Shown here piece after piece: positions 35,684 to 43,700 of a stretch of 64,000 bases of DNA (the stretch's first letter is position 1; each line of letters opens with the position of its first letter). The translations under genes and the position numbers were made by a program. Under the pieces are notes generated by a model, which saw only the letters and a list, made by a program, of their open reading frames with translations, did no database searches and had not been told where the DNA came from. Origin of the DNA: Hungateiclostridiaceae bacterium UBA1305 (GTDB taxonomy: Bacteria > Bacillota > Clostridia > Acetivibrionales > DTU013); the NCBI GenBank assembly GCA_002307275.1, contig DBTX01000068.1:3065-67064 (forward strand). Direction: 5' to 3'.

Positions 35684-36082
35684 TTACCAGATAAACGCAA
35701 GTACTTCCCCGCCTACGCCTTCAGCTCTTGCTTTCTTATCCGTCATGATTCCCCTTGATGTGGAAATAACTGCGACGCCAAGTCCCCCAAGAACCTTCGG
35801 CAGTTCGTCCTTGTTCGCATAAACCCTTAAACCGGGCTTGCTGATTCTCTTGATACCAGTTATTACTTTCTGTTTGTTTGCAGCGTATTTAAGTGAAATC
35901 CTTATAAGTCCCTGCTTGTCATCTTCTATTAGCTCGACGTTTTTAACAAATCCTTCGTCCAATAATATACGGGCAATATCCTTTTTAATATTCGACGACG
36001 GGATGTCAACTGTTTCGTGCTTTGCTGAGCTGGCATTTCTGACTCTTGTCAACATGTCAGCGATAGCGTCTGTAATATGCAT
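35684..36082 (-). CDS. rpsH: 30S ribosomal protein S8
   Basis: [14 protein letters not shown]...GGEVLAFIW. Confidence 0.97.
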
Positions 36083-36107
36083 ATGTTTAACCTCCTTCCA
36101 AAGATTG

Positions 36108-36293
36108 TTACCAGCTGGCTTTCTTCACGCCAGGTATCTGCCCTTTATACGCCAGAAGTCTGAAGCACAAACGGCATACTCCGAACTTCCTCATGTACGC
36201 ATGAGGCCTACCGCAAAGCTTACATCTGCTATATGCCCTGGTACTGTATTTGGCGACTCTTTGCTGCTTAATTATCATTGATTTCTTTGCCAC
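36108..36293 (-). CDS. rpsN: 30S ribosomal protein S14 type Z (zinc-binding, 61 aa)
   Basis: [12 protein letters not shown]...[25 protein letters not shown] at 36293 has an AGGAGG RBS; the ORF-track extension to 36392 runs into the repeat array. Confidence 0.93.
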
Positions 36294-36311
36294 GTTTATC
36301 CTCCTTTCATC

Positions 36312-36524
36312 GGGGACATTCCTTGGTATGGACTTTGAAGGTGTGTCCCCATTCCTTGACCGACATTCCTTGGTATTGGACATCAGGGACATTCCTTGGT
36401 ATGGACTTTGAAGGTGTGTCCCTATTCCTTGTTAAGGTGTGTCCCCATACCTTGACCGTCATTCCTTGGTAATGGACTCATCTTCAGGGACATTCCTTTT
36501 TCAGGATCTTTGAAGGTGTGTCCC
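36312..36524. repeat. Tandem array (~2.5 units of ~88 bp) with three GGGACATTCCTT...AAGGTGTGTCCC hairpins, in the rplE-rpsN spacer
   Basis: Near-identical hairpins at 36312-36350, 36396-36432 and 36487-36524. They are interleaved with attccttgaccg(a/t)cattccttggta segments. Confidence 0.8.
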
Positions 36525-36548
36525 TGTACCTTGAATTCCCCTAACCTT

Positions 36549-37091
36549 TTAACCCTGAGTGAACGGCATTCCCATAAGTCTCAGAAGCTCTTTTGCTTCC
36601 TCATCTGTCTTGGCAGTAGTAACAAACACGATATCCATGCCTCTTACCTTATCTACCTTATCATACTCAATTTCCGGGAACATAATTTGTTCCTTCACAC
36701 CCATTGAGAAATTTCCTCTTCCGTCAAAGGAATTTACCGATATCCCCCTGAAGTCTCTTACTCTTGGAAGTGCTACATTGAACAGTTTGTCTACGAATTC
36801 ATACATTTTGCTGCTGCGAAGTGTAACCTTGCAGCCGATATTCATACCCTGTCTCAGCTTGAAGTTCGCGATGGATTTCTTAGCTTTCGTAATAACCGGC
36901 CTTTGACCCGTTATGATTGCCAGATCATTCACAGCTGCGTCCATTGCCTTCGGGTTGTCTTTTACTTCACCTACACCCATATTCAATACTACTTTTTCAA
37001 GTTTGGGTATCTGCATTGTGCTGCTATATTTAAACTTTGCCTGCATTGCAGGAATTACTTCCCCAATATATTTATCCTTAAGCCTGGCCAT
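36549..37091 (-). CDS. rplE: 50S ribosomal protein L5
   Basis: [16 protein letters not shown]...NMGVGE...RGMDI. Confidence 0.97.
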
Positions 37092-37122
37092 TAGACCTTA
37101 ACCTCCTTTCAAGAAGAATATC

Positions 37123-37470
37123 CTAGTCTTCTTTTGATTCTTTTTGTGTGTCAATGATCTCTCCGCATCTTTTACATACACGATCCTTCTGACCGTCTTC
37201 ATGCACAAGCTTGGAGATCTTGGTCGGAGCCTTGCACCTCTCGCATATCAACATAACCTTTGAGCTGTTGATCGGGGATTCCTGATGGATGATTCCGCCA
37301 GCCTGGTACCTGCTTCTGGGTTTCTTATGCTTTGTCGACATGTTTACGCCCTCTATGAGAACCATCATATCGGCCGGGTTGACTGAAAGCACCTTGCCTT
37401 TTTTACCCTTATCCTTGCCTGAGAGTACGTAAACATTATCTCCCTTTTTAACATGTATATTATTTGCCAA
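37123..37470 (-). CDS. rplX: 50S ribosomal protein L24 with a C-terminal CxxC...CxxC zinc-ribbon-like segment
   Basis: HVKKGDNVYVLSGKDKGKKGKV KOW motif. TTG at 37470 follows a GGAGAGGAGG RBS; the ORF-track extension to 37533 reads into the repeat array. Confidence 0.93.
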   Translation of the reverse strand: MANNIHVKKGDNVYVLSGKDKGKKGKVLSVNPADMMVLIEGVNMSTKHKKPRSRYQAGGIIHQESPINSSKVMLICERCKAPTKISKLVHEDGQKDRVCKRCGEIIDTQKESKED

Positions 37471-37487
37471 TTTAAGCCGCCTCCTCT

Positions 37488-37630
37488 CCTTGGATGTTTT
37501 AGAGGTAATTCGCGCCACTGTGGCGCTAAACATCCGCCTTGGATGTTTTAAATGAAATCCGCGTCATGGACGCTAAACATCCGCCTTGGATGTTTTAAAT
37601 GAAATCCGCACTATAAAGCGCTAAACATCC
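37488..37630. repeat. Three tandem ~47-bp hairpin units in the rplN-rplX spacer
   Basis: CCTTGGATGTTTTA...GCG-loop-CGCTAAACATCCG occurs at 37488-37536, 37537-37583 and 37584-37630. Each unit pairs GGATGTTT with AAACATCC. Confidence 0.85.
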
Positions 37631-37634
37631 TACC

Positions 37635-38003
37635 TTATAGAACTTCTGGTGCGAGTGACAGTATCTTCATATAATCCTTGTCTCTCAGCTCTCTCGCAAC
37701 AGGGCCAAAAATACGTGTTCCTTTGGGGTTTTTATCTTCTTTTATGATAACTGCAGCGTTCTCATCAAACTTGATATACGAACCATCAGGCCTTCTTACG
37801 CCCTTCCTGGTACGCACTATGACACATTTGACTACTTCACCTTTTTTTACAACTCCGCCGGGTGTTGCACTTTTAACCGAAGCAACTATTACGTCACCTA
37901 TATTGGCATATTTCCTCCAAGAGCCGCCAAGCACCTTGATGCACATCATTTCTTTGGCTCCTGTGTTATCTGCTGATTTTACCATCGACTGAACCTGTAT
38001 CAT
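37635..38003 (-). CDS. rplN: 50S ribosomal protein L14
   Basis: [18 protein letters not shown]... Confidence 0.97.
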
Positions 38004-38046
38004 GCCAGTACCTCCTTCCAGTTATACTTCACTTTGAAATCGGCTG

Positions 38047-38304
38047 CTATTTAGCCTTTTCTACGATTTCAACGAGCCTCCACCTTTTTTCCTTGCTAAG
38101 CGGGCGAGTCTCCATAACTTTAACTTTATCACCGTTCTTGCATTCGTTATTTTCATCATGAGCCTTCAGTTTGTAAGTCCTCTTGACGATTTTCTTGTAC
38201 AAGGGGTGTTTTACTCTTGTCTCTATAGCAACAACAATCGTTTTGTCCATCTTGTCGCTGACTACCTTGCCGATCCTGGTTTTCCTTAATGCTCTATCTT
38301 CCAA
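38047..38304 (-). CDS. rpsQ: 30S ribosomal protein S17
   Basis: [22 protein letters not shown]...[13 protein letters not shown]. Confidence 0.96.
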
Positions 38305-38368
38305 GCAGGATGCCTCCTTTCATCTAATAAAATCTCGGGAGCATCAAGCTCCTTTCGATTTTGGCCGG

Positions 38369-38572
38369 TTAAACTTTAACTGCCTTTATTTCTCGTTCCT
38401 TTATTATTGTTTTGACCCGAGCGATTGATTTCTTGCAATCATTTAACCTCATAGGATTTTCCAGTTGGTTCGTGACAAGCTGGAAACGTAGTTTGAACAG
38501 CTCGGATTTAAGCTCGCTCAATTCCTTCTGAAGCTCTTCCTGCGTCTTATCTCTCATTTCACTGGCTTTCAT
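38369..38572 (-). CDS. rpmC: 50S ribosomal protein L29
   Basis: [31 protein letters not shown]. The start at 38572 overlaps the rplP 3' end. Confidence 0.95.
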
Positions 38573-43644: not shown

Positions 43645-43700
43645 AGGGGACATACCTTTCTGAACATGCTGTATTCCTTTTGCGTTAAGGAATGTCCCCT
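43645..43700 (-). promoter_or_regulatory. 14-bp-stem hairpin in the rpsJ leader, immediately 5' of the RBS
   Basis: AGGGGACATACCTT (43645-43658) pairs with AAGGAATGTCCCCT (43687-43700). It has the same GGGACAT.CCTT core as the rplE-rpsN array. Confidence 0.6.

Follow-up and report, generated by a model that had tools for sequence, protein, structure and literature searches.

A 42-base hairpin repeat family placed between stop codons and Shine-Dalgarno sequences in one uncultured Clostridia family

Intergenic stem-loops have known roles in clostridial operons. In Ruminiclostridium cellulolyticum, GC-rich intergenic stem-loops that are not terminators direct endonucleolytic cuts beside the stem, and the stem-loops of selective RNA processing and stabilisation (SRPS) protect the processed segments of operons, one of them ribosomal (PMC4423207, PMC10311766). 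The element described here resembles the SRPS system (Xu et al. 2015, PMC4423207; Wang et al. 2023, PMC10311766) in that its hairpins are operon-internal, lie between a stop codon and the next ribosome-binding site and lack a U-run. Also shared are the GC-rich stem, similar folding energies and a setting in ribosomal and housekeeping operons of a related Clostridia lineage. SRPS, however, are individual, gene-tied stem-loops, neither repeat copies nor tandem arrays, and their sequence is not conserved between sites; SRPS are further defined by a mapped processing site next to the stem-loop and by an effect on the stability of the flanking segments.

A second point of reference is provided by the REP, BIME and REPIN sequences of Enterobacteria and Pseudomonas. 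These too are short imperfect palindromes, extragenic, co-transcribed and found in many clustered copies, and they are able to stabilise upstream mRNA. With a 42-nt unit and up to 68 units per genome (4 in the source genome), the present element agrees with the REP/REPIN definition of a multi-copy palindrome of 20-40 nt. In contrast to REPINs, we found no RAYT association, the units stand head-to-tail and not in inverted pairs, and the conserved 5' GTAG tetranucleotide is absent. REPs lie mostly 3' of genes, whereas the present element is strictly sense, sits immediately 5' of a Shine-Dalgarno sequence (SD) and keeps one consensus across 13 genera. Terminal inverted repeats are shared with MITEs, but target-site duplications and clean empty sites are not.

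The boxB module of Streptococcus pneumoniae is about 45 nt long. BOX elements (boxA-boxB(n)-boxC; PMC3184786) offer a tandem module of similar size that is intergenic, transcribed and predicted to form RNA structure, and they are reported to modulate the expression of neighbouring genes. The present arrays differ in that they begin and end with a unit, with locus-specific flanks in place of A and C modules; BOX elements have no fixed relation to the SD, and their sequence and host are other ones. Neisseria REP2 and the Borrelia IR (PMC3184786) are also tied to an RBS, but they are 120-150 bp long, carry their own promoter, RBS and ATG, and are neither operon-internal nor tandem 42-nt hairpins. 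The heptamer GGGNATC repeats of Xanthomonas and Nostoc (Rehm et al. 2015, PMC4692102) and the cyanobacterial STRR likewise lie preferentially between co-oriented ORFs near stop and start codons. The heptamer repeats are transcribed and vary in unit number; they differ as simple 7-nt tandems that form G-quadruplexes or long-arm hairpins with no conserved internal loop (PMC4692102). Thus, the element resembles co-transcribed palindromic repeats (REP/BIME, BOX, ERIC) and SRPS but fails membership of each. In the literature we found analogues only, and no described SD-abutting repeat in Clostridia. What is new is a family not described before, whose placement is unusually strict, always sense and next to the SD, and whose sequence is conserved across genera.

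Three hairpin units between rplN and rplX

The window, by which we mean the whole 64,000-nucleotide stretch that was analysed, carries on its minus strand rplN (ribosomal protein L14; 38003-37635, identified from the ORF list and its translation) and, downstream, rplX (ribosomal protein L24; 37470-37123). The rplX start codon, a TTG at 37470, is kept in relatives with and without the repeat. Between the two cistrons lies a 164-nt spacer (37471-37634, minus). An earlier note on this DNA had claimed that the spacer is filled by three head-to-tail hairpin units, and this is borne out by the letters and by the predicted folds. Tandem Repeats Finder reports 37488-37630 as a repeat of period 47 with 3.0 copies, 85% matches and a score of 182. 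The pattern GGATGTTTWR-N15-35-TAAACATCC has three matches in the 64-kb window and none in 100 shuffles.

Read along the mRNA, the rplN stop TAA (37637-37635, minus) lies 4 nt before the first hairpin. These four nucleotides read GGTA (37631..37634, minus), and GGTA or GGCA is the flank common to occupied sites of other genera. Unit 1 (37630-37588, minus; 43 nt; GGAUGUUUAGCGCU-UUAU-AGUGCGGAUUUCAUUUAAAACAUCC) scores 60.4 bits (E ~1e-10) against the covariance model R1, which we built from 98 distinct units; its predicted fold has an energy of -12.6 kcal/mol, and its inner stem contains a G-U pair as well as a compensatory U-A pair. A linker, AAGGC (37583..37587, minus), which is an SD-like purine run, leads to unit 2 (37582-37541, minus; 42 nt; GGAUGUUUAGCGUC-CAU-GACGCGGAUUUCAUUUAAAACAUCC), for which R1 gives 63.0 bits and the predicted fold -12.9 kcal/mol, again with a compensatory U-A pair in the inner stem. 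After a second AAGGC linker (37536..37540, minus) comes unit 3 (37535-37492, minus; 44 nt; 63.6 bits), which adjoins rplX and is the nearest of the three to the family consensus. The rplX Shine-Dalgarno region, AAGGAGAGGAGG (37480..37491, minus), directly abuts its 3' end, with the core GGAGG at 37484-37480 and 9 nt from there to the TTG.

The unit boundary had also been read as a mimic of an RBS plus ATG. This reading is not upheld: the linker is the start of an SD-like purine run, and the frame of a mini-ORF is broken by units of 42, 43 and 44 nt. A conserved mini-ORF (AUG UUU AGC ... UAA in 42-nt units) was rejected on the same grounds. Unit 3 does contain an ATG (37533-37531) in frame with rplX, and a mechanical ORF call accordingly runs over 37123..37533 (minus) and yields a 136-residue L24. 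The 21-residue N-terminal extension in this call is false; conservation places the start at the TTG (37470). At its other end, L24 carries two CxxC pairs (CERC...CKRC; 37123-37250, minus), which suggests, from the sequence, a zinc-ribbon C-terminal extension. The nearby S14 is of the short zinc type.

The same operon houses a second, unrelated palindromic family, GGGGACACACCTC...GAGGAATGTCCCC, with forms of about 57 and 43 nt that are often in tandem with CTTTTGACGCTAAAGCAA linkers. The earlier note had pointed to a sequence-unrelated repeat family here, and it is confirmed in the rplE-rpsN spacer at 36293-36548 (minus); further sites lie at about 43645-43700 and at both ends of contig C27. 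In addition to the rplE-rpsN spacer, the second family occupies the rpsJ leader, where it ends just before the SD (…AATGTCCCCGATGAAAGGAGG-7 nt-GTG). This family is abundant in the source genome: a loose GGGACA...TGTCCC pattern has 78 strand matches (about 39 loci), most but not all of which carry the second-family consensus. In another genome of the family (G003), upstream of rpsJ, the sequence GGGGAAATAGTAATGTCCCC stands just before a unit of the first family (L120:6440-6485) and is like the termini of the second family (GGGGACA). The two families may, to judge from these letters, stack at the same junctions.

Range and placement of the family

In the 3.8-Mb assembly of the source genome, R1 finds four units, three at rplN-rplX and one at rpmI-rplT, and the exact pattern, short-word BLAST and R1 together add just this one further copy. 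The fourth copy, of the GGATGTTT family, lies between rpmI (L35) and rplT (L20) on contig C83 at 75823-75863, with a stop codon 4 nt upstream and AUGAAGGAGG-11 nt-AUG downstream. At least seven further genomes of the family carry the element at the rpmI-rplT junction as well. Wide dispersal within the source genome was dropped as a reading.

The dispersal is seen in relatives. A BLAST search of 40 related genomes with the spacer gives matches at many unlinked places, and an exact-pattern scan of the GTDB species representatives finds 76 loci, all in uncultured Clostridia-type MAGs; the contigs that could be matched belong to genomes of the same Clostridia family. Within this family, 26 of 38 genomes, from 13 of 15 genera, have R1 matches, at 1-68 units per positive genome (one genus has 42-68, another 25 and the rest 1-17). 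R1 detects none in 111 genomes of other (sister) families of the order. Rfam 15, searched over 36000-38500 with E up to 10, returns no family, only two chance snoRNA matches of 14-15 bits. The plasmid and phage collections hold no match to the element, and an origin from either was rejected on this account. The named genomes are all metagenome assemblies and some arrays reach contig ends, so unit counts may be underestimates. Contigs start or end inside arrays at L056, L077, L093 and L099 (G023) and at L054 and L091 (G050). Arrays therefore disrupt short-read assembly, and the true unit number may exceed the maximum seen, which is 6.

The three units are copies of a true repeat family, not described before, that has a 42-base unit and is confined to one uncultured family of Clostridia; their membership in a family with the placement rule set out below is close to certain. 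That the units might prove to be neither found elsewhere nor conserved is contradicted by the copies elsewhere and by conservation above that of synonymous sites.

For the placement rule we grouped the R1 matches of the 76 GTDB loci and three related loci into 80 arrays, with gene calls in relatives made by a simple ORF heuristic. A start codon with its SD lies downstream on the same strand in 72 of the 80 arrays; the remaining eight either reach the end of their contig or precede truncated units. No array among the 80 is antisense to its neighbour. Because only 76% of the genes in those loci share the element's orientation, replication-strand bias alone cannot explain arrays that are exclusively sense. 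In 61 of the 72, 11-24 nt separate the end of the array from the start codon and the array adjoins the SD, a placement expected for about 3.4% of random intergenic positions and orientations (P ~1e-78). Of 65 distinct 3' flanks, 63 open with an A, which leads directly into the SD, and AA[AG]GGAG occurs in 35% of unit 3' flanks versus 11% for other genes.

The upstream side is similarly constrained. At 49 arrays the unit lies close behind the end of a co-oriented ORF, with 4 nt as the commonest gap, and the four nucleotides before the unit vary (GGTA, GGCA, AGGA, GAAG and others). At six arrays (L064, L065, L056, L071, L081 and L040) the upstream ORF stops at the TAG within GGAUGUUUAG (GGATGTTTAG), so that the element encodes the last two or three residues (…E-D-V) and the stop. 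Within an array, the units follow one another head-to-tail on one strand. A total of 39 different genes lie downstream, and they are of the ordinary housekeeping kind, including those for L24, L20, AspS, PheS, Era, MurC, FabG and V-ATPase B, as well as [FeFe] hydrogenase, deformylase, FlgD and ABC permeases. Ten of them were checked against Pfam; the others were named by eye. Such functionally unrelated genes do not form a single regulon. The earlier note had suspected a general propensity behind the two families in one operon; in relatives the first element indeed fills dozens of stop-to-SD gaps, other ribosomal-protein junctions included.

Unit number, fold and sequence constraint

Comparison of the rplN-rplX site among relatives, which the earlier note had called for, gives between 0 and 5 units at this one site. 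The element is present there in 10 independently assembled genomes, and unit numbers are 0, 1, 1.5, 2, 3 or 5. Within genus g1, the source genome (G000) has three units, G001 two and G002 none. Two species of g14 have three and two, three species of g5 have two each, G005 (g4) has five and G014 (g13) at least two; G004 (g3) and G024 (g7) hold degenerate remnants, and 18 other genomes, 10 of them within the family, have none. On a tree of the flanking genes the occupancy is patchy. Orthologous sites other than rplN-rplX show differences of 1-4 units.

Several features bear on how arrays come and go. The empty spacer of G012, GGTAGGAAAGGAGG (UAAGGUAGGAAAGGAGG), retains the GGUAGGA flank typical of filled sites and looks, from its letters, like a deletion footprint of the kind that deletion between GGA-containing ends would leave. 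Among the relatives occupied at rplN-rplX, units are most alike within one array. Read by eye, the loop sequences of g5 look conserved position by position along the rplN-rplX array, which points to long residence. In G003 (OW818679.1), a complete metagenome-derived chromosome on the deepest branch of the family, rplN-rplX is empty, and a variant with the 3' end AAACAUUR occurs before rpsJ, at rplR-rpsE (two units) and at rpmD-rplO (three units); every one of these copies abuts an SD. This pattern implies that the element entered different junctions of one ribosomal-protein cluster in different lineages and stayed long at some. Arrays probably grow and shrink by slippage or by unequal recombination between the GGA-containing ends (...GGAUG 5', AAGGAGG 3'), and spread to many junctions could reflect an insertion process directed at SD-like purine runs. 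Array flanks carry no consistent target-site duplication: AAGGA is often found on both sides, yet many copies lack it. In the one filled and empty pair examined, upstream of apt, the insertion is not clean, and target-site duplication was set aside as a signature.

The sense-strand consensus of the family is GGAUGUUUAGCGCC-loop-GGCGCGRAUUUCCNCUAAAACAUCC, followed by A and the purine run, with the half-sites GGATGTTTAGCGCC at the 5' end and GGCGC..AAACATCC on the 3' side. The 5' GGATGTTTAGCGCC is mirrored at the 3' end as terminal inverted repeats, interrupted by the internal loop of 11-12 nt. In the predicted fold, each unit has an outer stem of 8 bp (GGAUGUUU/AAACAUCC) followed by one unpaired A, and a GC-rich inner stem of 5 bp that closes a variable loop of 3-5 nt. 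Between the two stems lies a one-sided internal loop of 12 nt, GRAUUUCCNCUA, a feature absent from the earlier note. That note's view that variation is concentrated in the terminal loop holds as far as this loop is variable, but compensatory changes also affect the inner stem, where units 1 and 2 have U-A in place of the consensus C-G. The entire rplN-rplX spacer is predicted to fold at -54.4 kcal/mol (z = -2.9). In arrays, the minimum-energy fold joins the 3' arm of one unit to the 5' arm of the next, and the resulting unit-junction hairpins place the purine linker in a loop of 5-6 nt. No U-run lies 3' of the hairpin, where the sequence past the stem reads AAGGAG..., and an intrinsic terminator was rejected for this reason. 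Two other structural readings were also dropped. K-turn consensus requires GA next to the stem, and the strand beside the inner stem reads UA, not GA. A mimic of the 16S rRNA 3' end (a hairpin, then GGAU..CCUC) is not sustained, as the CCUC part is, by eye, not conserved.

Across 112 distinct units, 98.3% of stem cells are paired, and double-sided changes affect 4 pairs (7 cells) versus 0.6 (0.7) in shuffles. Single changes on the sense strand give 19 G-U versus 8 A-C, a weak bias among tandem copies that are not independent. The double changes and the G-U bias support a hairpin that is read on the sense strand. Between genera, the 39 non-loop nucleotides at rplN-rplX are 85% identical (up to 97%), versus 55% for the four-fold degenerate sites of rplN and rplX, a yardstick that is already conservative because both genes are highly expressed. 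Within the internal loop, the CCUCU part varies freely among units. Hairpins needed for stability alone are expected to drift in sequence with covariation. The stem letters are near-invariant beyond the needs of a structure-only role, so that a sequence-specific factor or recent spread fits better than a purely structural role.

Possible roles in the mRNA and rival explanations

Placement and fold lead us to give about an even chance to a role at the RNA level, in which the element would act on the mRNA as a hairpin that serves as a segment stabiliser, a processing mark or an insulator of the SD. Under this reading the element would be co-transcribed in the polycistronic mRNA, with each unit forming a two-step hairpin. 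Co-transcription is inferred from the missing U-run and the position inside operons, and transcription should read through because a hairpin without a U-tract does not terminate it. Acting much like the intergenic SRPS stem-loops of R. cellulolyticum, the hairpins would probably shield the rplN segment at its 3' end and the rplX segment at its 5' end once an endonuclease has cut the mRNA. They would also hold the strong rplX SD single-stranded: in the predictions, the native unit leaves the SD core unpaired with a probability of 0.73, a composition-matched shuffle with one of 0.53, and this modelled difference fits an insulating hairpin that frees a strong SD. With the spacer stretched from about 20 to 164 nt, independent initiation should replace termination-reinitiation coupling. 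The modulation of translational coupling or mRNA decay proposed in the earlier note would agree with the placement and the predicted folding. Counter to an SRPS-like role, L14 and L24 are needed equally, and differential stability of their segments would have no obvious purpose. In addition, G002 of the same genus lacks the element at rplN-rplX, as do about 20 other genomes.

Another reading takes the element to be a mobile repeat that is selfish or neutral, a very small non-autonomous insertion sequence that targets SD-like purine runs in one orientation and has no host role. It would be tolerated since stop, SD and read-through stay intact. We regard this as a tentative possibility, one that deserves to be kept in view. 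It would account for the different junctions occupied in different lineages, for 0-68 copies per genome within one family and for the patchy rplN-rplX occupancy on the tree; near-identical stems with little covariation would be the outcome of recent copying. The occasional rewriting of the upstream gene's last codons, with provision of its stop, is in keeping with such a repeat, as is the second unrelated family in the same niche of the source genome. A transposase partner, however, is not seen among the Y1/RAYT genes examined. PF01797 (Y1/RAYT) does not track the copies, with no match in G000, G023 (58 units) or G051 (42 units) and matches in element-free genera, and no units flank the six Y1 genes checked; a RAYT/IS200-type partner was dropped for want of both correlation and adjacency. 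The inconsistent target-site duplication, the unclean empty site and the lack of plasmid or phage matches also argue against a selfish repeat, and the position-specific loops of g5, read by eye, point to long residence. Together with long residence, the conservation of the units, far above that of four-fold sites, speaks against neutrality in particular. That conservation, which covers the stems and part of the internal loop over 13 genera and exceeds structural need, would be explained if the element were an operator for a sequence-specific trans-acting factor, a family-encoded RNA-binding protein or endoribonuclease that reads the stems and the GRAUUUCC loop and sets translation or cleavage at each element-bearing junction. 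The fixed position beside the SD and the display of the purine linker in a 5-6-nt loop of the predicted array fold are compatible with such an operator. CsrA is one candidate: GGA motifs mark the 5' end of the unit, in many cases its internal loop, and again the SD, the unit-junction hairpins would display AAAGGA in a loop, and RGGAUGU matches part of the SELEX consensus reportedly obtained for CsrA. Yet 30 of 38 genomes have csrA, whether they carry the element or lack it, and two high-copy genomes gave no csrA match; co-occurrence of CsrA with the element was rejected across the 38 genomes. The downstream genes have no common function, no candidate factor was identified and tandem arrays of up to 6 units would be unusual for an operator, which we therefore consider rather unlikely.

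The internal loop has been given one further part, that of an anti-SD switch. Its pyrimidine-rich stretch AUUUCCUCU would pair with the downstream SD once the outer stem is opened, for instance by a ribosome terminating 4 nt upstream, so that upstream translation gates the downstream gene. The consensus loop AUUUCCUCU can indeed form a predicted 9 bp with GGAGGAAAU, and the consensus unit followed by AAAGGAGGAAAU folds with a 9-bp loop-SD helix (-18.1 kcal/mol) at the expense of the outer stem. Loop-SD duplexes average -6.1 kcal/mol versus -3.7 for shuffled loops. But cognate and non-cognate loop-SD pairs are equal (-6.09 versus -6.10, permutation p = 0.53), the reversed loop does as well, and the CCUCU part of the loop is free to vary. 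In the predicted fold of the source genome's proximal unit the SD is unpaired, and overall the native unit raises predicted SD accessibility, which makes a switch of this kind very improbable. Chance similarity, or an assembly artefact limited to the source contig, is in turn refuted and has next to no probability left. Assemblers can collapse or expand short repeats, and arrays of several relatives lie at contig ends. Nevertheless, the same junction is filled in 10 independent assemblies, dozens of other junctions are filled too, and the shuffles give no matches; only the exact unit count of three could be wrong.

An extension of the RNA-level role would turn the element into a mobile post-transcriptional cassette: a 42-nt module, read by a putative dedicated endoribonuclease or RNA-binding protein of the uncultured Clostridia family and copied into dozens of stop-to-SD gaps, several ribosomal-protein junctions among them, that sets mRNA cuts and the strength of downstream translation. 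We hold this to be doubtful. If it were true, operons would be under a genome-wide layer of control that is addressed by sequence and was spread as the repeat proliferated.

At a practical level, the in-frame ATG and TAG within units mislead gene callers. More broadly, small interspersed palindromic repeats are usually viewed as junk that gathers after genes, and the rule followed by the present family is much stricter. Its sense-only wedging between stop codon and RBS holds even in the most conserved operons, with a sequence kept across 13 genera. If this placement reflects targeting, it would point to an insertion mechanism that reads Shine-Dalgarno-like sequences. If it reflects function, the family would constitute a natural, portable intercistronic insulator or processing part, and the spread of repeats could rewire operon expression.
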